From positions 1-51,285 of the forward strand of contig CAZTQA010000002.1 in NCBI GenBank assembly GCA_964615205.1: a stretch of DNA of 51,285 nt, given 5' to 3'. The notes below the pieces were generated by a model. That model was given only the letters and a program-made list of their open reading frames with translations, had not been told where the DNA came from and searched no databases. Position 1 is the stretch's first letter. Each line of letters opens with the position of its first letter. Shown piece by piece: positions 916 to 16,560 of this stretch. A program made the position numbers and the translations under genes. This DNA comes from an uncultured Candidatus Saccharibacteria bacterium (GTDB taxonomy: Bacteria; Patescibacteriota; Minisyncoccia; Minisyncoccales; JAGMDC01).

Positions 916-978
916 ATTTGTACTTTCATTATAGTTTATCAAGGATTAATGTCAAATTGGCATCACTAAAGAACTGGA

Positions 979-1101
979 GCTCGTGAACGATGTTACTGCG
1001 TCCCACTGAAGTCCGAAGGACGAAGGAGGAGAATCAAGATTCAGAAACAAAATGAGTATATTTACATTCCGAAATTATAAAAATAGAGTTGACCCTATTT
1101 T
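979..1101 (+). repeat. att-like repeat, 'B' half, copy 1
   Basis: 123 bp identical to 2930-3052; homologous to 1628-1725. Confidence 0.92.
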
Positions 1102-1575
1102 TTCCTTATTTAATTTAAATTTAATAAAAAATTCTAAAATTATCTGTTTTACTTCTTGTAAATTATTGTACTCTCGTAACCAAATACCTTTATGGTTTTC
1201 TTCACCCAGAATAAGAGCGGATTTTGGACGATATCCCTTTTGATAAATTAACAATAAAGGAGCGGGGGTTAGTCCTATTCTTTTTCTCATTCTATTGCGT
1301 TCAATCTCTCTTCCTACACCATAACTTCCTTTACTACTCACTTCAGCAATCATACATTCACTTTCCTCAACCCAAGCAAGATCTTGTTCTAGAATTTTTT
1401 GATAGGAAAGTTTTTCTTTTGGTATTCCTAATTTTTCAGCTAAAGCTTTTCTATGATCTTTTTGTCCTACATGCTCAGATAATACTTTATGCCCTATGCT
1501 TTTAAGCCATTCTATTATTTCTGCAACATAATTATTTCTCTCATTTGCTAATGATGCAGCGAAATATATTTTCAT
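1075..1575 (-). CDS. Nucleoside 2-deoxyribosyltransferase / nucleotide N-hydrolase-like protein
   Basis: MKIYFAAS N-terminus, 'DLAWVEESECMIAEVS..GSYGVGRE' matches the NDT/RCL-family pattern; ATG at 1575. Confidence 0.7.
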   Translation of the reverse strand: MKIYFAASLANERNNYVAEIIEWLKSIGHKVLSEHVGQKDHRKALAEKLGIPKEKLSYQKILEQDLAWVEESECMIAEVSSKGSYGVGREIERNRMRKRIGLTPAPLLLIYQKGYRPKSALILGEENHKGIWLREYNNLQEVKQIILEFFIKFKLNKEKIGSTLFL

Positions 1576-1627
1576 ATTACTTAACTTTAGCAAAAATAAA
1601 AACCCGAGGCAAATGCCTCGGGCAACT

Positions 1628-1725
1628 GCAGGGACTCGTGAACGATGTTAGAACTATAATTCAGAAACAGAATAAGTATATTTATATCCCAGATTTATAA
1701 AAATAGAGTTGACCCTATTTTTTCC
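1628..1725 (+). repeat. att-like repeat, 'B' half, copy 2 (diverged, lacks the 35-bp insert)
   Basis: GCAGGGACTCGTGAACGATGTTA...AAAATAGAGTTGACCCTATTTT aligned by eye with copies 1 and 3. Confidence 0.88.
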
Positions 1726-1786
1726 TCTATTTTTTCGTAATACTAAATTTAAACCCACAGATTTAATTATTTTATTATGCTTCTTT

Positions 1787-1820
1787 AATTTAAAACTCCC
1801 CGAAAAGGGAGTTTTAAATT
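1787..1820. terminator. Intrinsic terminator-like hairpin downstream of the 1872-2357 gene
   Basis: AATTTAAAACTCCC / GGGAGTTTTAAATT inverted repeat. Confidence 0.65.
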
Positions 1821-1871
1821 TTTTTCAAGCCATAAGTTATTATAAATTGAAAAAAAAAGAAAAGGAAAAAA

Positions 1872-2357
1872 TTATGCGTCCCAATGTTCTATTGGTGTCT
1901 TTCTGAAAAACTCTTCAGAAGTATTCTGTATCGCCATTTTCAGAACCTCTTCTAAAGAGTCTATATTCCATGGCAAAACCCATCCACCCCAATCTTCGGC
2001 ATTCCATCGGTCAAGCCAGTACCTAAATTCCAAAGAAATATGATCGTTTTCGATCCTAATTCTTGTTTTTACTGGATAGCCCTTCCAATGATCGATATCG
2101 AGTTCCTTATTTTTGTTAGCCCAGTCTTGTAAAATTTTCAAATTCTCACTTGTGAGTAATGGCTCGAAAGCATGGGGATCTAAAAAAGCCATTCCTCGAC
2201 GCATCGGAGCCTTAATAATAGAAGAGACGGCGATGCGGAAAATAAGATCTTCTGCCGATTCTCCCTCATCTGGATAGATGATAATCTTTCTAATTTCTGA
2301 TTGTTTCTTGCCTTGTGGGGTTTTTGGTTCACCTACTTTGGGTAGCTCATACTTCAT
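1872..2357 (-). CDS. Hypothetical protein
   Basis: 161-aa ORF with GGAGGTG SD upstream; no family recognised. Confidence 0.8.
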   Translation of the reverse strand: MKYELPKVGEPKTPQGKKQSEIRKIIIYPDEGESAEDLIFRIAVSSIIKAPMRRGMAFLDPHAFEPLLTSENLKILQDWANKNKELDIDHWKGYPVKTRIRIENDHISLEFRYWLDRWNAEDWGGWVLPWNIDSLEEVLKMAIQNTSEEFFRKTPIEHWDA

Positions 2358-2580
2358 TTTTTTTCACCTCCAGACAAAAAACCGTTAATAATTGATTTTC
2401 TCTCTGGAGGTGAATTTTTCCCTTTTTTATTTTATTAAAGATACTTCTATTTTTTATTATATAACTATACTTTAATTTTGTCAATAGTTTGGGTAATCTA
2501 CACACATTTATTACTCAACTAAGAAACCGCTTCTACTGGAAGTAAAAAAAAGAGGGCCATAGTTTAAGCCTTCATATAAA

Positions 2581-2787
2581 TTATTCTATTAGTTTCATTA
2601 ACTGAGCATCTACTACATCGTCGGGAGCACTTGGTTTTCCATTTACAGCCCTGAAAACAAATCCACCCTTTTCTCTGAGTACAAGAACTGACTCTATTCC
2701 CGTACTGCGTTCCCAATCGCACAAAGCATCACACAATTCAGTAATCGCATCCCTAACCCTTGGATCTCGGTGTTCCTGAAGTGTCAT
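2581..2787 (-). CDS. Small hypothetical protein
   Basis: ORF track 2581-2814; GGAGGTG at ~2797-2803 favours ATG at 2787 (MTLQEH). Confidence 0.7.
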   Translation of the reverse strand: MTLQEHRDPRVRDAITELCDALCDWERSTGIESVLVLREKGGFVFRAVNGKPSAPDDVVDAQLMKLIE

Positions 2788-2877
2788 CTTTTTTATCACC
2801 TCCATATCTTTCAATATTTTCAGTTTATATTTTTTCTAACTTAAGTCAAGTCCTTCAAAATAAAAAACCGCTGGTTT

Positions 2878-3052
2878 GGCGATTTTTTGAGGCCTCTCGG
2901 TCTCTTGAACTGCGCTCAAGTTTGCAGGGGCTCGTGAACGATGTTACTGCGTCCCACTGAAGTCCGAAGGACGAAGGAGGAGAATCAAGATTCAGAAACA
3001 AAATGAGTATATTTACATTCCGAAATTATAAAAATAGAGTTGACCCTATTTT
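2878..3052 (+). repeat. Complete att-like junction: 'A' half (2878-2920), core GCAGGGGC (2924-2931), 'B' half
   Basis: A half near-identical to 3906-3949; B half identical to 979-1101. Confidence 0.9.
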
Positions 3053-3072
3053 CTCCTCAGGACGTTTTTAGA

Positions 3073-3729
3073 TTATTTTTTGAATAAACTTTTAATTATA
3101 AATGGCTTAATATCAGCTTCTATTAATACTCTTTTAGTATCTGTTCTTCTAATCATTCCATTCGTAGGTTCCGTAGCCTCATAAATTTCATTTTTAGGAA
3201 TCGAGAAACCTACATATTCAACTTTTCTTTGAAATCTATTTCTAACTTCATCAATTGCCGGAACAAGATCCGTATCAGAACTTACTAATATGGCCGTGTC
3301 ATATTTATTATCAAACGCTCCTATAATTAAATCTGTAGCAATCTTAACATCTATACCTTTCTCTCTTGATTTTTTATGATAGACTTCTTTAATCCCTAAT
3401 TCTAATAATTTTTCATAATTAATAACCCTTTTATCTATCTCTATTTTTTCAATTCTTGTCCTTAGAGTACTTGTTTTGATTATCCATTTCTCTGGCATAT
3501 TGCTAAGTTTTGTCAAAAGAGATGTCTGATTTGACATTGCTTTTTTACTTTCATAACCCTCTCTAACTGTAGCAACGTAGAAACGTTTTCCTTCTCTGAT
3601 TATAGCTCTCTCCCCAGCTAAAAATCTTGCGAACGCTTCAAAATCAAATTCAACCTCTTGGATACCTAATTTTCTTAAAACGAGGTGATAAAAATTACTT
3701 GCATCAAAAAGAATACAAACTTTTTCCAT
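3073..3729 (-). CDS. NYN/LabA/DUF88 PIN-fold domain protein
   Basis: Motifs 'FDASNFY', 'EKGIDVKIATD', 'LVSSDTDLVP' are typical of NYN domains. Confidence 0.88.
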   Translation of the reverse strand: MEKVCILFDASNFYHLVLRKLGIQEVEFDFEAFARFLAGERAIIREGKRFYVATVREGYESKKAMSNQTSLLTKLSNMPEKWIIKTSTLRTRIEKIEIDKRVINYEKLLELGIKEVYHKKSREKGIDVKIATDLIIGAFDNKYDTAILVSSDTDLVPAIDEVRNRFQRKVEYVGFSIPKNEIYEATEPTNGMIRRTDTKRVLIEADIKPFIIKSLFKK

Positions 3730-3905
3730 ATATTTTTATTATATCATACAAATATTATAAAAAGAAAAAACCCGCACACTGCATAAAGCAGGCACAGGTG
3801 ACTTTCAATTCCATGTTAGGATATTTCTAAAAATCTGTCAAGAAATTTTCTGTGGAAAACTAAAATATTTATCATCGAATTTTAATCAGGAAAATTGTTC
3901 TTCTC

Positions 3906-3960
3906 GGCGATTTTTTGTAGGCCTCTCGGTCTCTTAAACTGCGCTCAAGGGGGCAGGGGC
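3906..3960 (+). repeat. att-like 'A' half fused to the tRNA-Trp 3' end (core GCAGGGGC 3953-3960)
   Basis: 3906-3949 matches 2878-2920 with one indel and one substitution; core is the antisense of the tRNA acceptor stem. Confidence 0.88.
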
Positions 3961-4025
3961 GCCAGGATTCGAACCCGGAACAAAAATTTTGGAGATTTCT
4001 ATGATAGCCGTTTCACCACGCCCCT
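3954..4025 (-). tRNA. tRNA-Trp(CCA)
   Basis: AGGGGCG...CGCCCCT acceptor stem, anticodon loop CTCCAAA, GGTTCGAATCC. Confidence 0.93.
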
Positions 4026-4030
4026 AAATC

Positions 4031-4195
4031 TTACTTCTTTGATTCCTTGTGAACCGTATGCTTTCTGCACCACTTACAGAATTTTTTCAATTCCAACTTT
4101 CCCTCAACCAATCCTTTGGATTTCCTTGTGAAGTAATTTATTCTTTTGCAGATTTGGCACTGCATTTTTATAAATGGTTTCTTTTTTACTGCCAT
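4031..4195 (-). CDS. rpmG: 50S ribosomal protein L33 (zinc-binding type)
   Basis: MAVKKK..CQIC..NYFT..LELKKFCKWCRKHTVHKE; true start is the ATG at 4195. Confidence 0.95.
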   Translation of the reverse strand: MAVKKKPFIKMQCQICKRINYFTRKSKGLVEGKLELKKFCKWCRKHTVHKESKK

Positions 4196-4198
4196 ATG

Positions 4199-4270
4199 AG
4201 CCGATGAAGAGAATTGAACTCTTGACCTCTTTCTTACCAAGAAAGCGTTCTACCACTGAACTACATCGGC
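4199..4270 (-). tRNA. tRNA-Thr(GGT)
   Basis: GCCGATG...CATCGGC acceptor stem, TTTCT-TGGTA-AGAAA anticodon arm, GTTCAATTC T-loop. Confidence 0.93.
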
Positions 4271-4277
4271 GAAAATG

Positions 4278-4361
4278 TGGGCAGGGAGGGATTCGAACCC
4301 CCGAAGGCACGAGGCCAACTGGTTTACAGCCAGTCCCCTTTGGCCGCTCAGGAACCTACCC
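4278..4361 (-). tRNA. tRNA-Tyr(GTA)
   Basis: CTGG-CTGTAAA-CCAG anticodon arm, long variable arm, GGTTCGAATCC. Confidence 0.93.
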
Positions 4362-4417
4362 GATTATGTTTATAATCTATCACAAAATAAATCAATTTTC
4401 AACCTGTCCTGAATTTA

Positions 4418-5095
4418 TTAAAGGATGATTTTTCCGTGTTTTTTGCGCCATTCTTCAATCTTTTTATGGTTTCCGCTGAGTAAAACCTTGGGAACTTTCC
4501 ATTTCTTGTCTTTAGTATAAGAAAAAAATTCAGGGCGGGTATATTGAGGATACTCAATAAATCCCCTGCCGCTTCTTCCTCGAGCTGTTGGAATTCTTTC
4601 TTTTAATAAATCCTGTTTGCCGATTATCCCAGGAATCAAACGGGCGATTGTCTCTATAACCACCATTGCCGGAAGTTCTCCTCCCATTAAATCATAATCT
4701 CCAATAGATAATTCCATATCAGCTGACTTAGCCACTCTTTCATCAAATCCTTCATATCTTCCGCAAATTAAAATTAGTTGGTCATTTTTAGAAAGCTGAT
4801 AAGCTAATTTTTGATTAAATTTCTTCCCTCTGGGAGTAAAAAGAATTGTTTTGGATTTACTTTTGGATTTCTTTAGGGCAGTTACTGCTTTGAAAATAGG
4901 TTCAATTTTCAAAACCATTCCAAACCCTCCTCCAAAGGGCCGATCATCAACTGTCTGATGTTTATCAGCAGTATAATCCCTTAAATTATGAACTTTAATC
5001 TGAATTATTTTTTTTTCCTTGGCACGCTTAATCAAGCTCTCATTAAAATAAGAATCAAAAATATCTGGAAAAATTGTAATAATGTCAAATCTCAT
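4418..5095 (-). CDS. trmD: tRNA (guanine37-N1)-methyltransferase
   Basis: VDDRPFGGG, CGRYEG, SIGDY..GGE, EYPQYTRP, VLLSGNH. Confidence 0.97.
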   Translation of the reverse strand: MRFDIITIFPDIFDSYFNESLIKRAKEKKIIQIKVHNLRDYTADKHQTVDDRPFGGGFGMVLKIEPIFKAVTALKKSKSKSKTILFTPRGKKFNQKLAYQLSKNDQLILICGRYEGFDERVAKSADMELSIGDYDLMGGELPAMVVIETIARLIPGIIGKQDLLKERIPTARGRSGRGFIEYPQYTRPEFFSYTKDKKWKVPKVLLSGNHKKIEEWRKKHGKIIL

Positions 5096-5099
5096 AAAT

Positions 5100-5133
5100 G
5101 AAAACCGTGCTATTCTATAGTAGCACGGTTTTC
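5100..5133. terminator. Hairpin between khpA and trmD
   Basis: GAAAACCGTGCTA / TAGCACGGTTTTC inverted repeat. Confidence 0.65.
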
Positions 5134-5155
5134 TTTTTTTTGTAAACGAAAGGGT

Positions 5156-5476
5156 TTACAGTTTTAAGTCATCTAGGCCTTCTTTGGCGCTAGTTTCTCT
5201 TCTTCCTTGAGCAGTAGCTCTGCCGCCTTCGGGCTCTTCAATCTTAAGATTAACCCGAGCGTGATTCTTAAGTCCGACAATCCTGACTAGACTTCGAATA
5301 GCTTTGGCAGTGGAGCCAGCCTTTCCAATAATTTGGCCCATATCTTCTGGGTTAATATTAAGAGAAAGTAAAACTCCCATTTCATCTACCTTTCTATCTA
5401 CTTTTACGTCTTCAGGATGGTCGACTAAGGCTTTAACGATGTACTCAAGAAATTCCTTGTCATTATCTTTAGCCAT
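5156..5476 (-). CDS. khpA: KH-domain RNA-binding protein (KhpA/YlqC)
   Basis: LVDHPEDV, DMGQIIGKAGSTAKAIR; conserved position after rpsP. Confidence 0.92.
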   Translation of the reverse strand: MAKDNDKEFLEYIVKALVDHPEDVKVDRKVDEMGVLLSLNINPEDMGQIIGKAGSTAKAIRSLVRIVGLKNHARVNLKIEEPEGGRATAQGRRETSAKEGLDDLKL

Positions 5477-5561
5477 AATCTTTCAATCTTAGTAAATTTA
5501 ATCATTCAGTAGCTCCGACCTTTCTGAAAAGCTACTATATCTTAATTATATTACTTTTATA

Positions 5562-5945
5562 TTATTTGTCAACTTTTTCTTCGGCTGGTTTTTCTTCGGT
5601 TGGCTTTTTTCCAATCGGTTTTTCAGCTTTTTCTTCCTTGCCTTCCGTAGCTTCAGCAGAAACAGATTCTTCCTTCTTTTTTCTAGAACGGACATCTCTT
5701 TTCTTTCCCTCTATAATTTTTTCAGAAATAAGCAAATTATAGATTCTGTCTGATGGCTGAGCTCCTACAGAAAGCCAATGCTTGATTCTTTCTGTATTTA
5801 TTTTTTTTTCTTTTGTAAGAGGATTCAAAAATCCTAAGGATTCCAAAAAACGCCCTCCTTTGGGAGAATTTTGTTTTTCCGTAACTACAACCCTGAAAAA
5901 CGGCTGATTTCTTTTCCCTCTTCTTATAAGTCGTATAACTAACAT
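5562..5945 (-). CDS. rpsP: 30S ribosomal protein S16 with charged C-terminal extension
   Basis: MLVIRL.R.GK.NQPFFRVVV, G.FLE.LG..NP, W.SVGAQPSD. Confidence 0.96.
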   Translation of the reverse strand: MLVIRLIRRGKRNQPFFRVVVTEKQNSPKGGRFLESLGFLNPLTKEKKINTERIKHWLSVGAQPSDRIYNLLISEKIIEGKKRDVRSRKKKEESVSAEATEGKEEKAEKPIGKKPTEEKPAEEKVDK

Positions 5946-5949
5946 TTTA

Positions 5950-6636
5950 CTAATTTGTTTTTTCTAATGCCTTTCGAGCCGCCTGTTCTTCCGCTTCCTG
6001 CTTAGAAGAACCCTGGCCCTCGGCTATTAATTTATCTTTAAGGAAAACTCCTATAATGAAATTTTTGTCATGGTCAGGTCCCCATTCTTTAAGAACCTTG
6101 TAATGAGGAGTAATAGATGTTTTTTCCTGGGCTTGTTCCTGGAAATCAGACTTAGCATCTTTATAAAGGCCTTCTTTAATAATTTCCGGCAGTTCTTTAA
6201 TCAAATTCTCTTGAATAAACTCGCTGCAGGGATCGTATCCCTGATCCAGATAAAGAGCTCCTACAAAGGCCTCAAAACTATTGGCCAAAATAAACTGGCG
6301 GGCTTTCCCTTTTTCTTTGGCTTCTCCTTGGGAAAGAAAAAGAAAATCATTAAAGTCAAGATCGCGAGCAACTCGGGAAAGCATTTTAGAATTAACCAAA
6401 GCTGCTCTCCAATTAGTCATTATTCCTTCTTGTTTTTTAGGGTAATTTTCAAAAAGATATTTGGTAACCACTAATTCCAGAACTGCATCCCCTAAAAATT
6501 CTAAGCGCTCGTTGTGATATAAATGAAAATTTGGATTTTCGTTCAAATAAGAGCGGTGAATAAAAGCCTGGGTAAGCAAATCCTTGTTTTTAAATTGAAC
6601 TCCTAATTTTTTCTCAAGCTTGCTTAAATCCTTCAT
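5950..6636 (-). CDS. rnc: Ribonuclease III
   Basis: NERLEFLGDAVL signature plus C-terminal dsRBD. Confidence 0.97.
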   Translation of the reverse strand: MKDLSKLEKKLGVQFKNKDLLTQAFIHRSYLNENPNFHLYHNERLEFLGDAVLELVVTKYLFENYPKKQEGIMTNWRAALVNSKMLSRVARDLDFNDFLFLSQGEAKEKGKARQFILANSFEAFVGALYLDQGYDPCSEFIQENLIKELPEIIKEGLYKDAKSDFQEQAQEKTSITPHYKVLKEWGPDHDKNFIIGVFLKDKLIAEGQGSSKQEAEEQAARKALEKTN

Positions 6637-6637
6637 A

Positions 6638-7066
6638 TTACTCTTTGTTTTCTATTTCTTTATAAACAGTTCCCAAAACACCATTAATAAATTTCCCTGC
6701 CGATTCACCGCTAAAGGTTTTTGCTAACTCAATGGCTTCATTAATAGCTACTTTAGGTGGAACTGCTTTCTTGTCGCTGTAAATAAGCTCATAAAGCCCT
6801 ATACGTAAAACATTTCTGTCTATGATATTTATCTGTTCTAATGGCCATTCCGGAGCTGCTTTTTCAATAACCTTATCTATCTGGGAAATCTTTTCTTCAA
6901 TTCCATTAACTAGTTCCCAAACCAAACTCTTGTCTTCTAAACCAGGACCAAATTCTTCTAAGTTTCTATTTGTTATTTCTTTCAAAAAATTTGGCTTTTT
7001 ACCAAAAAAATCCCACTCATATAAACTTTGCATTGCTATTGAACGTGATAAATGCCTACTTGCCAT
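6638..7066 (-). CDS. nusB: Transcription antitermination factor NusB
   Basis: [21 protein letters not shown]. Confidence 0.96.
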
Positions 7067-7067
7067 A

Positions 7068-7361
7068 TTATTTTTTAGATAGCTCTTCCATAGTTAAAGG
7101 TTTTGTTTTTTTCTCTTCAGTTTTTTCTGCTTCCTTGCTGGTAATTTCCTTTTCTTTCTTTTTCTTTTCTTTCTTAGTTAATTTTTTCATTACATCAATC
7201 ACTTCCCTTCCTTTATAATAACCACAAAAACCGCACACTGTATGCGGCAGAACCGGCTTTCCGCACTTAGAACATTTAATTAAACCGGGCTTTTTTAAAA
7301 AAATGTGCATCCTCCTCTGGTTTCTTCTGGATTTTGTTTTTCTCTGTTTTGGAACTGCCAT
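7068..7361 (-). CDS. rpmF: 50S ribosomal protein L32 with C-terminal extension
   Basis: [29 protein letters not shown]. Confidence 0.96.
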
Positions 7362-7389
7362 AACAAACTTGATACTACCAGATAATTAT

Positions 7390-7695
7390 CTATTTAGCAA
7401 GGGTTTCTTTTTTGGTAATTATTTTGTAAATGTTTTCTATAAAATCTCCACCTGCATATCCCACAATAAACGCTAGAGCTGGCGAAAAAGTGTCTACGCC
7501 CAAAAAACCAATCCCTAACTCTTTGATGCTAGCTGCTGTAAGAACTCCAATAATGCCAGACAAAAACATCATAGTTAGAAAATAAGGAATATCAAAACCA
7601 ACATTCTTGTAAGAATATTGGTGTTTTATATATCCAACCAATCCTCTAATCACTCCTCCCCCAAAACCAGCAATTAAGATAGCTAAATAAAACAT
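7390..7695 (-). CDS. Small membrane protein (three TM helices)
   Basis: Hydrophobic, Gly-rich helices; translationally coupled to the upstream gene. Confidence 0.8.
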   Translation of the reverse strand: MFYLAILIAGFGGGVIRGLVGYIKHQYSYKNVGFDIPYFLTMMFLSGIIGVLTAASIKELGIGFLGVDTFSPALAFIVGYAGGDFIENIYKIITKKETLAK

Positions 7696-8852
7696 TATTT
7701 AATGATAACACAAGGTTCAAAATATTCAATCAAACATTTTTGGAATTCTTTTAGGTTTTTATTCTTGAGCCTAAAACCAGCTGCTGGTGCATGGCCTCCA
7801 AAAGTAATTAAAAGTTTTTCGCAGGTTTTCATAGCTTTAACAGCATCCAAACCAGCAGGCATCCTTACAGAACCAACGCTTTCTTCTTTCATCTTTCTAT
7901 AAATAAAAGTGGGTCTCTTGTATTTATTGCATACCCTGGAAGCAATAGTTCCTACTAAAGTATTGGGCCAGCCAACATCACCTTCAAAAATAACAGAAGG
8001 AACCTCTTCGTTAATTTTTCCCTCTACCTCCTTAACTACCTCTTTAATTAATTCTTTCCTCTGTCTGCTCCTTTCTAAAAGACTGTCTCTTAATTCTTCG
8101 ACTTCTTCTTCATCTTGAGAAATTAAGAATAAATAAGCTTCGGTTAAATGTCTTTTAATCTGGCTTACATTTAGAATAGAAACAAGGCGCTGAATTCTTT
8201 CACCTTCTTTCATCCTTTTTAAAAAAGGAAGCTTGAAAAATATTTTTAAACCTATGCGTTGAGTGTTTCTTAATGATTGAAGTCCTTTTCTAATATATTC
8301 TTTATTCTCTTTCTCTTTCGGCATCATATCAGCAATAGTAGCTAAAGCTGTCAATTCCAATAAAGAATTATTCATTTCCTCACTCATTTTATTTCCAAAC
8401 ATTAATCTGGCTAATCTGTAAACAACACCTACTGTAGCTAAATCTTTAAAAGGATAATTATCCTTTTTTTGTTTAGGATCAATAATTATTGAGGCCTTGG
8501 GCAAGGAATCTAAAACCTGATGATGGTCAATAATAATGACTTCAAACCCCATCTGATTAGCTGTATCAGTTTCCTTAAAACTGGTAACTCCCAAATCTAG
8601 AGTAATAAATAAAGCTGGGGCAAGGGGCTTTAAAATATTGAGAGCTTTTTCGTTTATTCCGTAACCTTCTTTTCCTCTATCAACAAAATAAACAGACGAA
8701 ACCTTTCCGCCTAAATTCTCAATAGTTTCCTTTAACATAACCACAGAAGCACTGCCATCCAAATCAGCATCACCGTAGATAATAATCCTTTCTTTATCTT
8801 GAATGGCTTTTAAAATTCTTTGGCTTGCTTTTTTAAGATTTTTTATTTCCAT
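7695..8852 (-). CDS. recJ: RecJ-like DHH/DHHA1 phosphoesterase (short form)
   Basis: YGDADLDG, DLG, IIDHH, TIADMM, GSVR, GGHAPAAG; ends right after DHHA1. Confidence 0.82.
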   Translation of the reverse strand: MEIKNLKKASQRILKAIQDKERIIIYGDADLDGSASVVMLKETIENLGGKVSSVYFVDRGKEGYGINEKALNILKPLAPALFITLDLGVTSFKETDTANQMGFEVIIIDHHQVLDSLPKASIIIDPKQKKDNYPFKDLATVGVVYRLARLMFGNKMSEEMNNSLLELTALATIADMMPKEKENKEYIRKGLQSLRNTQRIGLKIFFKLPFLKRMKEGERIQRLVSILNVSQIKRHLTEAYLFLISQDEEEVEELRDSLLERSRQRKELIKEVVKEVEGKINEEVPSVIFEGDVGWPNTLVGTIASRVCNKYKRPTFIYRKMKEESVGSVRMPAGLDAVKAMKTCEKLLITFGGHAPAAGFRLKNKNLKEFQKCLIEYFEPCVIIK

Positions 8853-8919
8853 ATATTTATAGATTGTAGCAGAAAAGAATAAAAAAGCCCACCCCTTACA
8901 TAAAAACCTTGGTTCGGAC

Positions 8920-8947
8920 TTGACAATTTTCTATAGATGATTATAAT
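8920..8947 (+). promoter_or_regulatory. Consensus sigma70 promoter
   Basis: TTGACA (8920-8925), 16-bp spacer, TATAAT (8942-8947). Confidence 0.85.
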
Positions 8948-8954
8948 AAAAAAT

Positions 8955-9236
8955 GGCCGGGGAAGAAACGCCTATGGACACGTGAAGGGAATCCCGAAGC
9001 GGAACATCTCTGTCTCTACTTCGCCCGAAAAGCGCGCTACGGGAGAAGAACGAAGGGCGTTGAACCGGCCGGCTAGCTCGCGTAGTGTTTTTTCTAAAGA
9101 AAGAAGTGCAATCGCTTTAAACTGGAAAGCACCCCCAGGATTTACGGGGGTGACGGAGACGATAAGATAAAACTAGTTTGCGAGCCAAGCTGTGGGTGGC
9201 AGCAAAAACATTTTTCCACCCTCCCCTTTTTGGGGA
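8955..9236 (+). ncRNA. Unidentified structured non-coding RNA candidate (~280 nt)
   Basis: GC-enriched intergenic segment directly after a consensus promoter, with many nested helices and no credible CDS. Confidence 0.6.
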
Positions 9237-9239
9237 TAT

Positions 9240-9271
9240 GACGCTTTGTACAATTTGTACATTTAAGCGTC
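9240..9271. terminator. Hairpin between the convergent ncRNA candidate and pgk
   Basis: GACGCTT..GTACAA/TTGTAC..AAGCGTC imperfect inverted repeat. Confidence 0.5.
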
Positions 9272-9275
9272 TTAT

Positions 9276-10292
9276 TTATTTTAGGACATCTAGACCTACA
9301 AGCTGGCCATCTACAATGTAGTTTAACATAGCTCCGCCGCCAGTAGAAACAAAGCTAAATTTATCAATTAAACCAATTTGAGCCAAAAACTCTATTGTCT
9401 CTCCCCCACCTACAACTGAAAAAGCTCGGCTTTCAATAATGGCTTGAGCAACTTCCCGGCTGGATTGAGAAAATTCTTCTTCTTCAAACTTGCCCAAAGG
9501 ACCATTCCAGAAAACTGTTCTGGCTTTTTTTATTTTTTCCTTAAATAATTGAGCGGTTTCTTCTCCAACATCAAAATTATTTTTTTTCCAGTCAACAGGC
9601 AAAATTATTTTATCCGCGTATTTAAACTGTATATTCTCTTTTTCAATCTCCAAGGGCAGCAATCCGCCTACTAAAACCCAATCGCATATTTCAGAAATCT
9701 TGTCAATAAACTTGGCTTTGGTTTCTACTTTCTTTCCACCCATAACTGCCACAAAAGGTTTAAAAGGATTTTTAATCAGCTTATCCAAAACTTCCAGCTC
9801 TTTCTCAATAAGCAAGCCAATGCCTGAAGGCAGATGTTCGGGAATACCCACAATTGAGGCATGTTCTCTGTGACAAACAGCAAAAGCATCATTAATATAG
9901 ATATCTCCTAATTGAGCTAATTGCTTGGCAAACTCTAAATCGTTTTCCTCTTCCTCTTTGTAAAACCTAATATTTTCTAAAACTGCCGTCTCTCCCGACC
10001 CTATCTTTAAATATTTAAAATCATCTACTAATTTTATTTTCATTCCCAAGTATTTTTCCAGACATTCTACAACTGGCTTCAAGCTATATTTTTCTTTCCT
10101 GCCTTCCGGTCGGCCCAAATGGCTAATAATGATTATTTGGGCCTCATGTTCAATCAAATACCTAATAGTAGGCAAAACGGCCTTGATCCTGAAATCATTT
10201 AAAATGTTCCCTTTTTCATCTAAGGGAACATTGAAATCAGTTCTCAACAAAACTTTTTTGTTTTTGAAATCAAAATCAGTTATCTTTTTCAT
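9276..10292 (-). CDS. pgk: Phosphoglycerate kinase (short form)
   Basis: RTDFNVP, SHLGRP, LENIRF, NDAF..HR.HAS, FWNGPLG.FE, VSTGGGA. Confidence 0.95.
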   Translation of the reverse strand: MKKITDFDFKNKKVLLRTDFNVPLDEKGNILNDFRIKAVLPTIRYLIEHEAQIIIISHLGRPEGRKEKYSLKPVVECLEKYLGMKIKLVDDFKYLKIGSGETAVLENIRFYKEEEENDLEFAKQLAQLGDIYINDAFAVCHREHASIVGIPEHLPSGIGLLIEKELEVLDKLIKNPFKPFVAVMGGKKVETKAKFIDKISEICDWVLVGGLLPLEIEKENIQFKYADKIILPVDWKKNNFDVGEETAQLFKEKIKKARTVFWNGPLGKFEEEEFSQSSREVAQAIIESRAFSVVGGGETIEFLAQIGLIDKFSFVSTGGGAMLNYIVDGQLVGLDVLK

Positions 10293-11862
10293 TTTTATCT
10301 AAAGAATCTTTTAAGGCTTGTTTTAATCCTTGAACGTCTATTTCTTTTTTGGGCCTTTCTTTCTCTTCTTTTTTACGCGTGCTGGGATGAAAGAAAACCG
10401 GTTCTTGCTTAACAGCTTCATTCAAAGACATACCAGCAACTTCTTCGTGCTTTAATTTCTCCAAACAGGATTTGCAGTAAACCGGCCTGACATTATCCGG
10501 CTTAAAAGGAAGCTTGATATTTTTTCCGCATTTCTGGCATTGGGCGTCATAAAGGGCTTGAGAAGCTGGAGCCGGCTCTGTGCTATTGACAGACTGGGAC
10601 CAGACAGAAATTTTTGACTCTACTTCTTTCCTATCTGTGCCATACTGTTTCCTAGAGTTCCTAATAATTTCCTCCCTGTTTAATTCTATAGGCTTTTCTA
10701 AAGGAGGAAGAGTATCAGCTGAAAAGGGCCTGCCTGCTAATCCATCAATCATTAATTTTAAATAAATATTGTATTTAGCCAGATTAACCAAATCCGAAGC
10801 GTTAAATTCGGGCATAAATTCCTTTTCCAAAAATTCAGCATCCTCTGCTCCTACTCTGAAAGAAACAATGGTTCCCACATTGCCAAAAACAGCATCTCTT
10901 ACTCCCTCTTCCATTTGAGTAATATACTGATGAGCTAAAATAAGGCAAAGGCGGTATTTTCTGGCTTCAGAAAGAATATTTACAAATGATTCTGTGGCAA
11001 AATTTTGAAATTCATCTACGTAAAGAAAGAAATCTTTCCTTTCTGCTTCGGGAATGTCTACTCTGGACATAGCTGCTAATTGGAGTTTGGTAATTAAAAG
11101 AGCGCCTAAAAGCTTGGAAGCATCTTCTCCAATTCTTCCTTTGGATAAATTCAAAATTAAAATCTTTTGTTCATCCATAACCTTACGCATATCAATGGAA
11201 GTATGAACCTGACCAATAATATTTCTGATTAAGGTTGTGGAAATAAACTGGCCTATTTTATTCTGAATAGCGGCTGTAGCTTCCACTTCCAGTCTCTGGG
11301 TGTACTTGGCAAATTCCTGAGTCCAAAATGCCTTAATTACCGGGTCATTTACTTTGCTAACAACTTCTTTTCTGTAATCTGCATCTGCCAGCATACGATT
11401 TATTCCCAAAAGAGTGGAACCAGGATATTCTAAAAGGGCTAAAAGACAATTGCTTAAAATATATTCCATACGGGCTGACCAAACATCAGGCCAGATTTTC
11501 TTAAAAACACCCATCAAACCTCCGGAAACCAAATGTCTCTTCTCGGGATCTACTTTTTCCATAATATTAAAAGCAATGGGGTAATTTAAATCAGCTGGAT
11601 TGAAATAGACTACATCTTTAATTCTTTCTTTAGGAATAAAATCAAGAATGTTTTCCGATGCCTCTCCGTGAGGATCAACAAAAGCCACACCCCTGCCTGC
11701 CTGAATATCCTGAATAGCCATATTTTCCAGTAAAGCTGTTTTTCCCATCCCGGTTTTTCCCACAATATAAAAATGACGACGCCTGTCATCTGTTTTAATG
11801 CCAAACTTTTTTCTTATATTTCTAAAATTCGTTTCTCCAAAAAAATTTATTTCATCTTCCAT
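10276..11862 (-). CDS. VirD4/TraD/HerA-like coupling ATPase with C-terminal CxxC-x17-CxxC zinc ribbon
   Basis: Walker A GKTGMGKT, DPHG, Walker B LYVDEFQNF, EARKY..LAHQ; CQKC..PF.P...RPVYC..C. Confidence 0.88.
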   Translation of the reverse strand: MEDEINFFGETNFRNIRKKFGIKTDDRRRHFYIVGKTGMGKTALLENMAIQDIQAGRGVAFVDPHGEASENILDFIPKERIKDVVYFNPADLNYPIAFNIMEKVDPEKRHLVSGGLMGVFKKIWPDVWSARMEYILSNCLLALLEYPGSTLLGINRMLADADYRKEVVSKVNDPVIKAFWTQEFAKYTQRLEVEATAAIQNKIGQFISTTLIRNIIGQVHTSIDMRKVMDEQKILILNLSKGRIGEDASKLLGALLITKLQLAAMSRVDIPEAERKDFFLYVDEFQNFATESFVNILSEARKYRLCLILAHQYITQMEEGVRDAVFGNVGTIVSFRVGAEDAEFLEKEFMPEFNASDLVNLAKYNIYLKLMIDGLAGRPFSADTLPPLEKPIELNREEIIRNSRKQYGTDRKEVESKISVWSQSVNSTEPAPASQALYDAQCQKCGKNIKLPFKPDNVRPVYCKSCLEKLKHEEVAGMSLNEAVKQEPVFFHPSTRKKEEKERPKKEIDVQGLKQALKDSLDKNEKDN

Positions 11863-11886
11863 GTTTTTAATTTTTAAAATATAAAT

Positions 11887-13182
11887 CTATTCAGTAGGCA
11901 AATTGGCTGGTGCCTCTCCTCTCTTAGCTTCCACCCTAGAAACAGAAGGAGCGGCTGTTACTCCCATGCCCGGGAAATGAAATAAAGAAGCCAATTCCTC
12001 AATATTTAAAATAAAGGTTCCGCCAGACCAAGGAAAGAAAGGATTCAGTCTCTGGGAATAATTTCTAAATAATCTTCTCTTCCTGACATAAAGCCGTTTA
12101 TTGTCTAAAAACCAAAGCCAAACTGTCTGAACCTTAGTAATGGTTTTTTTCATTGGCTTCAAGCCATTAAAATTGGCTGTGCTGAATAAATCAAAAAATC
12201 CCATAGGAATAGCTTTATTGGGTCTGAAAAAAACATCTTTTTTTGCTACTAAAATAAATCTGATGCCGCAGTTAAAAGAATATTTTCCAATTTTTTCTTC
12301 AATACTTGCCACTACTTTTTTCTCTCCCGGAGTGAGCTCCATTTCGGGAAGAACTGCTCTCTCTTGTTTTTCCAGCTCTGCTGGCGGCTCACCTGTGATC
12401 AATACGTCTATGGCTTTCTCTACGATAGGTTTATCCGGAGGAGACAGTCCAGGCCTTTTCACCAGTTTATCTACAGCTTTTTTGGCATTTTCAAAATAAT
12501 TTTTGCTTTCAGCTAAATGAGAAACCGGCGTGCAGTACATTTGTATCCACAATTGTTCTCCGGGCTTAAACTTTGCCATTCCTTCCAATAAATTGGAAAT
12601 GGGATCAATTCTTTTTTCTTCCTTGGCTACGTCTGGCTTTTCTTCGTAGAAAGAACTGTAGGTTTTAATAGGATAAAAATCATCTTTTAATAACTCATAA
12701 TCGCAGCCCCAGGCGTCCCAGTCCCGATTAGGAACATCTTGAGAAACCTTTTTAGTATAATCCTCTACTTCCTTAATTTCTAAATCCGGATATTGGGAAT
12801 AAAGTACTGACTCCACTAAATTGCGCGCGGCTTCAGGAATACGAATAAAAAAATGGGGACTCCCATCAATACCTACTATTTCTAAAGAAAAACCCAGCTG
12901 TAATTTGCCTTCAAGCCATATTTCCCTGAAATTTCCCGGCGGGTCATAAAAATGCCACAAGCCGTTAAAAACTGTTTCCATGGCTTTTATAGGCCTCAAG
13001 ACTTCTTTAGAAGGAATTATTTCTAACACAATAAAGTTGACTGCATCAAGCCAAACAGTGTTTCTCCACCAAAGATATAAGAAGAGAAAGGGCTTAATTA
13101 AAATAAAAGGGATGATAACCCAGCCCCATGTTTTCAAAAACATCCATATTATGTTCAATATTTCAAAAATTTGTTCCTGCAT
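11887..13182 (-). CDS. N-terminally anchored membrane protein, partner of the adjacent ATPase
   Basis: N-terminal TM helix; 'FSLEI', 'YPIKTY', 'EELASLFHFP' motifs; co-oriented with the ATPase. Confidence 0.8.
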   Translation of the reverse strand: MQEQIFEILNIIWMFLKTWGWVIIPFILIKPFLFLYLWWRNTVWLDAVNFIVLEIIPSKEVLRPIKAMETVFNGLWHFYDPPGNFREIWLEGKLQLGFSLEIVGIDGSPHFFIRIPEAARNLVESVLYSQYPDLEIKEVEDYTKKVSQDVPNRDWDAWGCDYELLKDDFYPIKTYSSFYEEKPDVAKEEKRIDPISNLLEGMAKFKPGEQLWIQMYCTPVSHLAESKNYFENAKKAVDKLVKRPGLSPPDKPIVEKAIDVLITGEPPAELEKQERAVLPEMELTPGEKKVVASIEEKIGKYSFNCGIRFILVAKKDVFFRPNKAIPMGFFDLFSTANFNGLKPMKKTITKVQTVWLWFLDNKRLYVRKRRLFRNYSQRLNPFFPWSGGTFILNIEELASLFHFPGMGVTAAPSVSRVEAKRGEAPANLPTE

Positions 13183-13185
13183 TAA

Positions 13186-14187
13186 TTAAGCTTCTTTGAC
13201 AAAGTATTTTCCTTGAGAATCCCGGGAAAAATGTTCTCTGTTTTGCAAATTCAAGAGTATGGTGTTTTTTTGAACAAAACGTTGGCTTGAAACCTTATCC
13301 ACAATCTCTTGGGAAGATAAAGGTTTGGGAGAACTTTGGATTACATCTTTAATTACCTCCCTGACTATGCCTGGTTTATATCCCCATTCTCTTAAAGCAT
13401 AAAGTCCCCTTCCCACCAAGACAAACCTGGAATCTTTAATCAACTCATTATGAACTGTTTTAACTAAGCAGGGCTTCTTTTCTTTTTCCTGTTTTTCAAT
13501 AAGTTCTGCCACTTTAGTAAAATGAAGAGGCTGGTTTTCTTTTTTAATAATTAAAAAGGCCTTGTCTTTAATACCTTTAGGATTAATCTCCGGCCACGAA
13601 GACAAACCATATAGTCCTTGTGTCCCCTTGTCAATATCTTTAGAAATATCTGCATAACAGGAAAGAACATCTTTGTTTAGATTAGCAAAACTAACCTTCT
13701 CTAAAGAAAGCGGCTGGCTCTTTTTCTCAAGTTCTTGTTTAAAATCATCAACTACTTTTTGAACCGTATTAACAGAATTATGATTTATAGTCCAAAAAGC
13801 ATGAAAATTATCTGTTTCCGAAACCCGTTTAAATTCATCTCCTAAAGTAAGTAAAAAGAAAACCTGGCCTTTAAATTTCTTTCCGCCAAGCTCTTCTAAA
13901 AGTGAATCTTCTTTTTTAAGGTTGCCGCAATTTTGTAGTTTTTGTTTAAAATTTTGAAAAACATTTTGAGCCACTGTTTTGGCTTTAGCACGGGCTTTTT
14001 TTAATCCATCTTCTTCAATTTGACGCACTCTTTCCCGAGTAATTTCATAGCTCTGGCCAATTGATTCTAAGGTTTCCCTCCCCTGGCCCTGTTTAAGGCC
14101 AAAGCGACGTTCCAGAACATCTCTGGTTCTCTTTTGGGGCAAATCTTTTAAAATATCATTGCAAATTTTTTGATAATTAATGTTCAT
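13186..14187 (-). CDS. Sigma70 region-4 HTH protein with C-terminal winged-helix (HARE-HTH-like) domains
   Basis: RRFGL..RETLESIG..Y.ITRERVRQIE; 'PLHF..VA..I...TVHNELI.D.RFVLVGRG.YAL.EW'. Confidence 0.82.
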   Translation of the reverse strand: MNINYQKICNDILKDLPQKRTRDVLERRFGLKQGQGRETLESIGQSYEITRERVRQIEEDGLKKARAKAKTVAQNVFQNFKQKLQNCGNLKKEDSLLEELGGKKFKGQVFFLLTLGDEFKRVSETDNFHAFWTINHNSVNTVQKVVDDFKQELEKKSQPLSLEKVSFANLNKDVLSCYADISKDIDKGTQGLYGLSSWPEINPKGIKDKAFLIIKKENQPLHFTKVAELIEKQEKEKKPCLVKTVHNELIKDSRFVLVGRGLYALREWGYKPGIVREVIKDVIQSSPKPLSSQEIVDKVSSQRFVQKNTILLNLQNREHFSRDSQGKYFVKEA

Positions 14188-14198
14188 AAGATTATTTT

Positions 14199-14227
14199 TT
14201 TATAGCATAAGATATAAATGCTGTCAA
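14199..14227 (-). promoter_or_regulatory. sigma70 promoter for the 13186-14187 gene
   Basis: TTGACA-17 bp-(TGC)TATAAA on the minus strand. Confidence 0.7.
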
Positions 14228-14236
14228 TGTTGAAAA

Positions 14237-15127
14237 CTAAATTCTTTTTTTAAATTTAAACCACCAGACCAAAAGAGGACTGACCAAGAACAAGGAAGAA
14301 TAAGTCCCTGCTGTAATTCCAATAATTAAAGCCAAAGCAAAATATTTTAAAGTTTCACCTCCGAAAAAGAAAATAGCCAAAAGCACAAACAGGGTGGTTA
14401 AAGATGTATTGATGGAACGGGTTAAGCTCTGATTTAAAGAGATATCTACTATTTTGGCAAAATCTTCTTTAACGTGGGGACTTAAGAGGTTTTCTCTGAT
14501 TCTGTCAAAAACAACTACTGTATTGTTGACAGAATATCCTAAAACCGTAAGCAAGGCCACAATAACCGGAATAGACACCTCTACTTCATAATAGTGGCCC
14601 AAAACAGCAAAAAAGCCCAAAGGAATCAAAACATCATGGCCTAAAGTAATCAAAGAAGCCAAGCCAAACTGCCAGCTTCTTATGGGCTTTTGAACAGCTC
14701 GGAAAGAAAAAGCAATATATAGAAGGACGACTAAAACAGCTAAAATTACAATTAATTTTGTTTTTTCTTTTAATTCACTCCCGATAACCGGGCCTATGTT
14801 TTCATATCTTTGCTGTTCTAATTCATAATCTTGCTTTAACCTTTCCATAATCTGGCTATGGGTTTCTTCAGGGATATCTTTGGCGCGGATAATAACTCCT
14901 TTTTCTCCAGTGGGCTGAATAACTATAGTGCCTAAATCAAACCCCGAAAGCTGTTCTCTGATTTCATCGTTAGAGGGTCTGTTTTCAAGATATTCTATTT
15001 CTAAAATGCTGCCGCCAGTAAATTCAATACCAAATCTTAAATTAAACCAAGCCAAACTAATCAAGCTTATTAAAATCAAGGCAAGAGAAAAAATAAAATA
15101 AATTTTAGAATATTTGATTATTTCCAT
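14237..15127 (-). CDS. secF: Protein translocase subunit SecF
   Basis: GIEFTGG, GYSVNNTVVVFDRIRE, RSINTS.TT, GTYSS. Confidence 0.96.
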   Translation of the reverse strand: MEIIKYSKIYFIFSLALILISLISLAWFNLRFGIEFTGGSILEIEYLENRPSNDEIREQLSGFDLGTIVIQPTGEKGVIIRAKDIPEETHSQIMERLKQDYELEQQRYENIGPVIGSELKEKTKLIVILAVLVVLLYIAFSFRAVQKPIRSWQFGLASLITLGHDVLIPLGFFAVLGHYYEVEVSIPVIVALLTVLGYSVNNTVVVFDRIRENLLSPHVKEDFAKIVDISLNQSLTRSINTSLTTLFVLLAIFFFGGETLKYFALALIIGITAGTYSSLFLVSPLLVWWFKFKKRI

Positions 15128-16521
15128 ATTTTTCTAAACTTTTCTAAGCGAGTTCCCTCAAACATCTGAAGAAGGCTCTTAGTAATTAAAATGGCAGAAA
15201 ACATACTTAAAAGAATGCCCAAGCTTAATGTTAAAGCAAATCCTTTTACAAAGCTGGTTCCAAAAGCAAACAAAATAAGAGCTACCATTAAAGTGGTTAG
15301 GTTCCCGTCTTTAATAGAAGGCCAAGCCCGGCTAAACCCCTCCTGAACACTCTGGGAAAAGGTTTTTTCTTTTTCTATCTCTTCTCTCATACGGGAGAAG
15401 ATAAGCACATTAGCATCTACAGCCATTCCAATAGACAAAATAAAGCCGCCTATTCCGGCCAGAGTAAGAGTAATAGAAGCTAATTTAAAAAGACTTAAAG
15501 CAAAAATAACATATATTATTAAAGCCATAGAAGCTAGAACTCCGGGCAAACGATAAAACAAAATCAAGAAAATTAAAACCGCTAAAAAACCATAGATGCC
15601 GGCAGTCAAGGATTTGTCTAAGGAGACTTTTCCCAAACTTGGGCCTACAGTTTGCTGGGAAATTAATTCAATGGGAACGGGTAAAGCTCCGGCAGAAAGA
15701 TTACGGGCTAATTCTTTGGCTTCCTGCAATGTAAATTGTCCTGTAATCTGGGCTTTACCTCCAGAAATCTTTTCGTTAACTACCGGACTAGAAATCATTA
15801 TCTCATCAATATAAATGGCTAAGGGTTTGTTAATGTTCTTTTCAGTTAATTCCTCAAAAATATTAGCTCCTTCTTCATCAAATTGAAGCCGTATTAATGG
15901 ATTATAACCGCTCTGGTCAAAGCCGATTTCCGCGCTTTCTAAATATTTCCCGGTTAAATCCGTGGCTACAAAAGGATCTTCAAAAGCTAACATCCAATTC
16001 TCAACTGAGTTTTGAATCTCTTCAAAGGTTTTTCCTTCCTGCATCAATTTATTTACTTCTTCTCTTTTGGCTAAAATTTCATCAAAATTTTCTGCTTTTT
16101 CTCTGAATTCCAAAAAAGGCGTTTGGCCAATCATTTCAATGGCTTGAGCCGGATCACTTATACCAGCCAGCTCCACAATTAAACGATTGTGTTCTGCTGT
16201 TTGTTGAACTTGCACTACTGGTTCCGTAACACCAAAAAGATTGACTCTTCTTTCAATAACGTCTCTCAATCCCTGCAAAGAAGAAGTAATGTCTTCTTCC
16301 TCAACATTAGAAACATCAGCCTCATAAATTAAATGAGTTCCACCCTGTAAATCCAATCCCAAGACAAACTCTTCCTCCGGCATTTTGGGAAAATTAACAG
16401 ATAATTTATTACTTATAACATCAGCTCCTTTATTCCAGTATTGAGGTTCAACAAAATTTCCTGCCACAAAAGCCAGAATAAAAATGAAAATAACAATAAT
16501 AGTATTTTGTCTGCGAGACAT
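15118..16521 (-). CDS. secD: Protein translocase subunit SecD
   Basis: LGLDLQGG, GALPVP, GPSLG, GMAVDANVLIF. Confidence 0.97.
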   Translation of the reverse strand: MSRRQNTIIVIFIFILAFVAGNFVEPQYWNKGADVISNKLSVNFPKMPEEEFVLGLDLQGGTHLIYEADVSNVEEEDITSSLQGLRDVIERRVNLFGVTEPVVQVQQTAEHNRLIVELAGISDPAQAIEMIGQTPFLEFREKAENFDEILAKREEVNKLMQEGKTFEEIQNSVENWMLAFEDPFVATDLTGKYLESAEIGFDQSGYNPLIRLQFDEEGANIFEELTEKNINKPLAIYIDEIMISSPVVNEKISGGKAQITGQFTLQEAKELARNLSAGALPVPIELISQQTVGPSLGKVSLDKSLTAGIYGFLAVLIFLILFYRLPGVLASMALIIYVIFALSLFKLASITLTLAGIGGFILSIGMAVDANVLIFSRMREEIEKEKTFSQSVQEGFSRAWPSIKDGNLTTLMVALILFAFGTSFVKGFALTLSLGILLSMFSAILITKSLLQMFEGTRLEKFRKIWK

Positions 16522-16560
16522 ATTATTTTATTTTATCTCTTAAAAATATTTTGTCAACTT

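Follow-up and report, generated by a model that had tools for sequence, protein, structure and literature searches.

A probable stand-alone gene for an orphan, structured non-coding RNA between recJ and pgk in a candidate phyla radiation bacterium

Introduction

What occupies the 423-bp gap (8853–9275) between a recJ-like gene and pgk, the phosphoglycerate kinase (PGK) gene, in the genome of an uncultured Candidatus Saccharibacteria bacterium (GTDB lineage Patescibacteriota; Minisyncoccia; Minisyncoccales; JAGMDC01)? The DNA analysed here, hereafter the window, is a stretch of 51,285 nt from this 620-kb, 34% GC genome (assembly GCA_964615205.1, contig CAZTQA010000002.1, positions 1 to 51,285 of the forward strand). 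An earlier note, made from its sequence alone, had placed in the gap, which is flanked by two minus-strand genes, an orphan multi-domain RNA of about 280 nt with a promoter of its own. To our knowledge, almost nothing is known about the regulatory RNAs of the ultra-small bacteria (about 600 genes) of the candidate phyla radiation (CPR), and in the literature on structured or small RNAs of CPR bacteria and Patescibacteria (supplements excluded) no such RNA turned up.

Here we argue that a non-coding RNA of about 245 nt, stable and abundant, is probably encoded in the gap by a stand-alone gene. This RNA is most likely an orphan, fast-evolving one, a single lineage's version of an antisense RNA gene in the recJ–pgk spacer. 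It is new and unclassified, but of a known general kind, namely an orphan bacterial small RNA (sRNA) gene in a GC-rich intergenic island.

Results and discussion

Presence in environmental RNA libraries

A search of public sequencing runs listed 14 lake-water runs, each with the share of sampled words of positions 8600–9600 that it holds. Six of the 14 were metatranscriptomes, each with 0.14–0.21 of the words, while DNA runs contained the whole stretch (shares of 1.00, 1.00 and 0.92), the share in the DNA runs X3–X7 being 0.27–0.92. When the contigs of four of the six RNA runs were compared with positions 7600–10400, each run yielded a single contig of 186–230 nt, 100% identical to the window and lying over its whole length within 8962–9200, with no loose ends: 8962–9181 in X8 (word depth 25), 8965–9194 in X9 (18.7), 8966–9187 in X10 (4.8) and 9015–9200 in X11 (22.3). 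We read this as a stretch, made up of the two folded domains described below (D1 and D2), that occurs in RNA libraries as a separate unit. No contig from the four runs fell on recJ, on pgk or on the rest of the compared region (~2.5 kb), although such uncovered flanks are a weak hint.

The left edge of the contigs is consistent with a transcription start near 8955. As to length, the structured RNA itself stands, while the full ~280–330 nt does not: because the RNA-library contigs cover 8962–9200, the stable species would be about 245 nt, that is, D1 plus D2. Nor is the region silent, since contigs from four RNA libraries contradict an absence of expression.

Promoter, fold and 3′ end

Upstream of the RNA lies a sigma-70 consensus promoter on the plus strand (8920–8947), in which TTGACA (8920–8925) and TATAAT (8942–8947) are separated by a 16-nt spacer; it scores 12/12 in a consensus promoter scan, as the earlier note had read it, and is the sole 12/12 site within 7000–12000. 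Across the genome there are 19 such perfect sites, compared with an average of 0.4 over 20 simulations from a first-order Markov model (a ~50-fold excess). The promoter clearly exceeds chance, and because of this excess we take the perfect consensus sites to be real signals in the source organism. A GC-rich fold begins 7 nt after the −10 hexamer, and the contrast in composition stated in the earlier note is present, GC being 0.537 for 8955–9200 vs 0.34–0.37 in the flanks.

In minimum free energy (MFE) folds the plus strand forms two domains, each closed independently and abutting without a linker. D1 (8955–9070; 116 nt, 59.5% GC; pair probabilities 0.80–0.98) is closed by GGCCGG/CCGGCC (0.98) and AACGCCU/GGGCGUU (0.95) and contains the inner hairpins GGG-AAU-CCC and CUUC-CCCG/CGGG-GAAG (0.91 for CUUC/GAAG, 0.92 for CCCG/CGGG). 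D2 (9071–9191; 121 nt, about 47% GC; pair probabilities 0.93–1.0) is closed by GGCU-GCUCGCG/UGCGAGC-AGCU, with a probability of 0.96 for GCUCGCG/UGCGAGC, and holds the hairpin CACCCCC/GGGGGUG (1.0). All the helices listed in the earlier note are present in the sequence at the positions given there, the main ones with high pairing probability. The 8-bp pseudoknot once proposed between the domains is at chance level, given that in 91% of 500 dinucleotide shuffles, too, the two domains have an uninterrupted complementary stretch of 8 bp or more. Compared with shuffled sequences, the stability of the fold has z-scores of −1.56 for D1, −2.55 for D2 (9071–9190) and −2.17 for D1 plus D2; a longer fold (8955–9285, 331 nt) reaches −3.0 and its minus strand −3.2. 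Fold potential, as modelled, beats chance only modestly.

Two further hairpins, GGGUGG/CCACCC and (U)CCCC/GGGG(A), are read from the plus-strand sequence and its MFE fold at 9194–9236; no RNA-library contig includes them, and the mature RNA may have lost them by trimming. Beyond them the MFE fold predicts an interrupted 13-bp hairpin, GACGCUU-UGUACA...UGUACA-AAGCGUC, followed by UUAUUUAUUUU (9240–9283, plus strand). The hairpin itself covers 9240–9272, the T-rich tail exists on the plus strand only, and the end lies 3 nt from the pgk stop codon. Hairpin and tail together are a likely plus-strand terminator, although the 9240–9272 hairpin is not among the calls of a consensus terminator scan.

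The pgk–recJ spacer in related bacteria

Of 80 metagenome loci retrieved by a query with the RecJ-like protein, 72 have the recJ-like gene immediately after pgk on the same strand, with a gap of no more than 60 nt in 47 of these. Because the two genes are adjacent in so many loci, the RNA gene of the window is an insert that splits a conserved pgk–recJ pair. We examined 109 loci in all, of which 25 show both gene ends and have a spacer of more than 120 nt. In five of these 25 long spacers (L015, L016, L019, L033 and L045) a promoter scoring 11/12 or better lies antisense to both genes; it has the slot and orientation of the window's promoter and is no more than about 100 nt from the start of recJ. 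Scores are 12/12 in L015, L016 and L019 and 11/12 in L033, while L045 has one site of 11/12 and one of 12/12, so that a perfect promoter occurs in four of the five. L015, L016 and L033 are from sister-genus genomes (G005, G006 and G007, respectively), L019 is from the genome of another family (G020), and L045 is a metagenome locus.

Each of these promoters heads a 300–450-nt, ORF-poor (open reading frame) transcript with a terminator beside the pgk stop. In MFE folds, L019 resembles the window RNA in forming two abutting closed domains, and L015, L016 and L033 are less clear. None of the RNA bodies matches an Rfam family, and BLAST finds nothing in common between them and the window RNA, to which they are unalignable. 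Between L015 and L016, although they belong to one genus, similarity is limited to 137 nt (77% identity) plus a 29-nt junction. Shared promoters with unalignable RNAs behind them suggest that the promoter slot is the conserved feature and that the transcribed body turns over quickly.

L045 has an unusual layout (1–1146, read on the minus strand): its recJ–pgk spacer is ~1075 nt long and contains two promoter-driven units. A strong Shine-Dalgarno (SD) sequence and a Cys-rich ORF of 42 aa mark the first; the second gives a GC-rich transcript of ~430 nt that lacks ORFs and ends at a terminator of its own.

Searches for homologues of the window RNA itself returned nothing acceptable. A BLAST-type DNA search of 40 relatives gave only chance matches of 21–36 nt. 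A single-sequence covariance model (CM) of D1 plus D2 (R1, 56 pairs) found only itself in 41 genomes (the 40 relatives and its own), and over 151 genomes of the order (150 relatives and its own) it gave three weak, partial matches (20, 15 and 11.6 bits), none of which was accepted: that in G118 lies inside a 440-aa ORF, that in G124 is a 125-nt partial match with the interior of D1 deleted, and that in G078 covers just 59 nt. In the 80 metagenome loci R1 scored highest, at 11.2 bits, within the L095 pgk ORF. With the filters off, R1 reached at best 6.8 bits in L015, L016, L019 and L033, outside the spacer, and 4.4 bits in L045, with no match in the spacer RNA. A 19-mer from D1 has 25 matches in genome contigs, all unrelated, mostly in GC-rich contexts and with no common flanks; two other short patterns have none in viral contigs. 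Phage and plasmid collections gave no blastn match, and no convincing terminal repeats, inverted or direct, of the kind that bound a mobile element were seen. The idea that the RNA founds a new CPR class is therefore not established, as no homologue, and so no covarying one, was found.

The longer spacers of other Parcubacteria are filled differently. Many hold a structured element of 135–145 nt, which is dispersed and occurs at other sites as well; for it we built a model, R2, with 137 positions and 35 pairs. Across seven copies (L048:2609–2740, L080:2562–2695, L062:2776–2910, L081:2818–2957, L112:2835–2973, L072:2704–2847 and L076:2819–2959), compensatory changes are seen at 21–23 of the 35 pairs. 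On the strand antisense to the genes, the element has the form AAGYGAGG...CCGAGCG, with a long stem, a tandem G–A internal loop and a branched top. Its strand cues conflict, since G–U counts lean towards the gene sense and the tandem G–A loop leans the opposite way. It has no Rfam match at E ≤ 0.05, occurs in 68 of the 151 order genomes, where a single genome can have as many as 13 matches, and has four copies in the genome studied here (best C2:74392–74545, 73 bits). The window RNA is not a member, as R2 has no match in the whole window at E ≤ 10. Other spacers carry reverse ORFs instead.

The existence of R2 raises the question of whether the minus strand is the functional one in the window as well, the RNA being a structured spacer of a pgk–recJ transcript. 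The minus-strand fold is equally stable (z = −3.2) and the contigs do not reveal the strand; minus-strand D1 is followed by AUUUUUUAUUAU, and the spacers of relatives hold structured elements that lean towards the gene sense. For all that, we regard this as very improbable. By eye there is no usable minus-strand promoter near 9200–9275, and the scan finds none in the spacer (8853–9275), the nearest lying outside it at 9633–9604 and 8514–8485. The contigs reach neither pgk nor recJ, a perfect plus-strand promoter, conserved in relatives, stands next to the fold, and R2, as noted, finds nothing here. We infer the plus strand from the promoter, from the same-slot promoters of relatives and from three helix-end G–U pairs, which would become A–C mismatches on the minus strand.

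Coding potential

The only ORF of at least 60 aa in the transcript frame encodes 77 aa (8937–9170) and begins inside the promoter, upstream of the transcription start. It has no Pfam match and no relative among the 42–135-aa proteins of a 5.8-billion-cluster library. There is no SD-led ORF of at least 6 aa in the window transcript, and no peptide is shared among the six transcripts (the window and its relatives). The transcript could still be the messenger of one or more tiny peptides, or the remnant of a decayed small-gene cassette of the sort found elsewhere in the genome and in L045. The first unit of L045 lends this some colour, with its SD sequence and Cys-rich ORF behind an orthologous promoter, as do an SD-led small ORF near window position 2786 and a leaderless AUG at 8953, which would yield a 10-aa peptide. 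Given the coding results above, we consider a peptide gene extremely improbable.

The view that the region is a non-coding, stand-alone transcription unit has held up. It has the attributes of a stand-alone bacterial sRNA gene: its own promoter, no ORF, a terminator-like hairpin and contigs from four RNA libraries.

Known RNA families

Rfam 15 gives no match in the RNA region at gathering thresholds, and none over 8850–9350 at E ≤ 10, so that the apparent lack of a known family extends to sub-threshold matches. The individual candidates can be set aside in turn. For RNase P RNA (RF00010, class A; a CM match of at least 100 bits including the P4/CR-I GAGGAAAGUCC core) there is no match over 8850–9350 at E ≤ 10, and the genome's own rnpB lies at C1:195678–196024 (143.5 bits). 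For transfer-messenger RNA (tmRNA; RF00023, with tRNA-like ends plus a tag frame, at least 47 bits) there is likewise no match, and ssrA lies at C1:45865–46214 (131.4 bits). 5S rRNA (RF00001, at least 38 bits) has no match in the region and is found at C8:459–566 (77.7 bits).

The RNA of the signal recognition particle (SRP; RF00169 / RF01854, with the helix 8 motif of domain IV) has no match in region or genome at E ≤ 10, and RF00169 has none at E ≤ 1 in any of 41 genomes of the order. Its protein partners are missing too. The Ffh M domain (PF02978) and the SRP54 GTPase domain (PF00448) are absent from the genome, as is FtsY, with no DTAGR-type GTPase in six frames. In the order sample PF00448 has matches in four of 41 genomes, all weak and confined to the P-loop, and at E ≤ 1e-10 it has none in 121 genomes of the phylum. 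Many bacteria have ftsY or ffh beside rpsP, where the window has the RNase III gene (5950–6636), directly adjoining rpsP (5562–5945). Without Ffh and FtsY there is no reason to expect an SRP RNA; SRP loss is already known, one study describing SRP subunits as absent in many CPR bacteria (PMC8080830).

6S RNA (RF00013) has no CM match in region or genome, although the control for this search was weak, finding the RNA in 7 of 14 well-known genomes. Its shape is not that of the window RNA, whose 5′ end pairs with 9065–9070 (0.98) to close D1, leaving no rod with a central bubble. A check of the genome for the usual housekeeping RNAs had been called for; rnpB and ssrA were found, and SRP RNA and 6S RNA were not. 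The suggestion of a highly divergent housekeeping RNA is unsupported, with rnpB, ssrA and 5S rRNA elsewhere in the genome, no SRP partner and a fold that is not a 6S-type rod. A very divergent RNA of another kind, e.g. a 6S- or Ms1-like binder of RNA polymerase invisible to the Rfam models used here, would suit a genome in which no 6S was detected by a weakly controlled search, an RNA that is abundant relative to the neighbouring mRNAs and a conserved gene slot. We think this improbable in view of the pairing of the 5′ end within D1 rather than with the 3′ end, and of the fact that the genome's RNase P, tmRNA and 5S RNAs are recognisable to Rfam while the window RNA is unalignable even to a sister genus.

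A riboswitch or other cis-regulatory leader had been judged unlikely, and we agree: no plus-strand gene was found downstream, Rfam has no aptamer here, and relatives show no conservation. A more elaborate version would be a sensor-controlled antisense regulator, in which the 5′ fold senses a ligand or protein and so decides between a stop at 9240–9283 and readthrough antisense into pgk. The gene is convergent with pgk and the terminator ends close to its stop codon; an alternative pairing of 9146–9152 with 9217–9223 is possible by eye, and the contigs end before the 3′ hairpins. Yet no aptamer family matches at E ≤ 10, and aptamers are conserved, which the sequence of this RNA is not. No RNA contig covers the antisense of pgk (a weak point), and relatives also place full terminators before pgk. 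The chances of such a switch seem slim.

A gene or a by-product?

Several observations weigh against the reading of the locus as a gene for a functional RNA. The contigs from the RNA libraries carry no information on strand, ends or level, and the parts that they leave uncovered prove little; they also stop 40–90 nt short of the presumed terminator, which leaves the 3′ end unexplained. The computed fold z-scores appear modest and are equal on both strands, and the helices of D1 and D2 have no covariation support, since the homologue searches found nothing with which it could be tested. Enrichment of GAAG and AAGAA motifs has a P of about 0.02–0.03, uncorrected. The divergence between L015 and L016 fits weak constraint on the RNA body and possibly a dispensable product.

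An alternative is that the conserved item is a promoter–terminator cassette, which insulates the genes or sets recJ expression after the uncoupling of pgk and recJ, the RNA being a stable but functionless by-product and a young orphan. That the promoter slot is kept in five related loci with bodies that are unalignable, even within one genus, is what such a cassette would predict; relatives also fill the spacer with R2 elements and reverse ORFs, and the fold z-scores are modest. On the other side, the body has 54% GC in a 34% GC genome, where neutral sequence should drift to AT, two cleanly closed domains begin exactly at the predicted start, and the RNA is in all four libraries compared, at a depth of up to 25. 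We hold the by-product explanation to be possible, if rather doubtful, and retain the stand-alone RNA gene as the probable one.

For the RNA gene, we propose the following course of events. The sigma-70 promoter would fire on the plus strand, divergently from the recJ-like gene's own promoter, with transcription starting at about 8955. The primary transcript would end at the 9240–9283 terminator, or at a weaker hairpin plus U-run near 9231, and would then be trimmed back to the base of D2, giving a 3′ end at about 9191–9215. The RNA body would evolve so fast that orthologues no longer align.

As to its mode of action, mRNA base pairing is less likely because a search of the rest of the genome for long stretches complementary to the RNA returned only AT-rich matches of no more than 15 nt. 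GGA-type sponge motifs are not enriched. Because it lacks long complementarity, folds compactly and has a GC content far above that of the genome's neutral sequence, we tentatively suggest a trans-acting structured RNA that acts via its fold, binding or sequestering a protein; this is a guess that may well prove wrong.

A broader and more speculative view, which we rate as unlikely, is that the recJ–pgk spacer of this Parcubacteria family contains an old RNA gene with a conserved promoter slot and a product of ~250–400 nt, remodelled in each genus yet abundant, hyper-variable but functional. If this were true, the RNA could co-evolve with a lineage-specific protein, host or phage target, and it would do so in bacteria that have lost SRP and in which no 6S was seen.

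What appears to be new here, judging by the genomes and loci compared, is the same antisense promoter slot in five related lineages with unalignable RNAs behind it: an orphan, GC-rich RNA gene backed by environmental RNA libraries, in a promoter slot common to sister genera. A functional RNA would mean that minimal genomes spend resources on structured RNAs that are specific to a lineage and evolve fast; without a function, the locus would be a clean example of a strong promoter and a terminator creating abundant new RNAs, a potential source of functions.

Neighbouring genes and other features

The position between recJ and pgk is confirmed by matches to both families. The recJ-like gene (7695–8852, minus strand) encodes a 385-aa protein with the RecJ DHH/DHHA1 core, which scores 293.8 bits against TIGR00644 over model positions 37–423 of 546, below the cut-off of 396.9; PGK is encoded at 9276–10292 on the minus strand. 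Ten nucleotides before the ATG of the recJ-like gene (8852–8850), the sequence contains an extended −10 element, TGCTACAAT (8863–8871, minus strand), of what is putatively that gene's own promoter, standing back to back with the RNA promoter. A 32-nt stretch around it is 31/32 identical in L045, the closest metagenome relative. All family-matched ORFs of at least 90 aa across 232–20158 are on the minus strand; the few plus-strand ORFs of that size in this interval lie inside minus-strand genes and were outside the family scan.

In six metagenome loci (L062, L076, L081, L112, L122 and L124), tandem TACGAAT heptamers (ATTCGTA in the gene sense), in two to four copies, stand immediately upstream of the recJ-like start. 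They are a candidate operator or promoter element and are absent from the window. On the other side of the recJ-like gene, about 500–650 nt downstream, several relatives carry an RNase P RNA (RF00010, 105–181 bits), usually on the same strand: at about 4640–5230 in L048, L062, L076, L081 and L112, and at 4133–4615 (minus) in L049. In the genome studied here, rnpB is on a different contig from the recJ-like gene.

Elsewhere in the window, at 2580–2800 on the minus strand, a small ORF of ~68 aa lies behind a textbook SD sequence, GGAGGTGAT (~2786). The genome also contains further GC islands (at least 0.52 in a 100-nt window) that are ORF-poor, have no tRNA and have no Rfam match at E ≤ 0.1, among them C1:117136–117542, C3:61268–61522, C5:25410–25829, C7:28259–28959 and C8:5201–5341; these are possibly more orphan RNA genes or copies of R2. 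A group I intron match (RF00028) at C2:118888–119088, minus strand (L133:929–1129), is sub-threshold (44.7 bits vs a cut-off of 50, E = 5e-9). It lies in an ORF-poor region of 1.1 kb, outside the rRNA stretches scanned, with two perfect consensus promoters on the minus strand (C2:118773 and C2:118428).

Comparison with known systems

The closest counterparts of the window RNA are the antisense recJ–pgk RNAs of the sister lineages, with which it shares slot, orientation, a similar promoter and a terminator next to the pgk stop. They differ in being AT-richer (33–41% GC) and in having no sequence or CM similarity to it; SD-like GGAGG motifs or small ORFs are present in some of them. Like the window RNA, the R2 element is structured, GC-rich and unmatched in Rfam, and it too is inserted between pgk and recJ, but R2 is multi-copy with compensatory changes, whereas the window RNA is single-copy. 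With 6S RNA (RF00013) it shares abundance, small size, a stand-alone gene and a strong promoter; it differs in consisting of two closed domains, in giving no CM match and in not being conserved in relatives.

In general kind, it is most like the orphan non-coding RNA candidates from GC-rich intergenic regions (GC-IGRs), which three reports (PMC6429828, PMC8632094, PMC11109978) describe in AT-rich genomes: GC-rich islands that have their own promoter and terminator, fold into several helices, contain no ORF and have been assigned no function. Published GC-IGR motifs are defined by covarying homologues, of which the window RNA has none; what it has instead is its direct presence in RNA libraries together with a promoter slot conserved in position.

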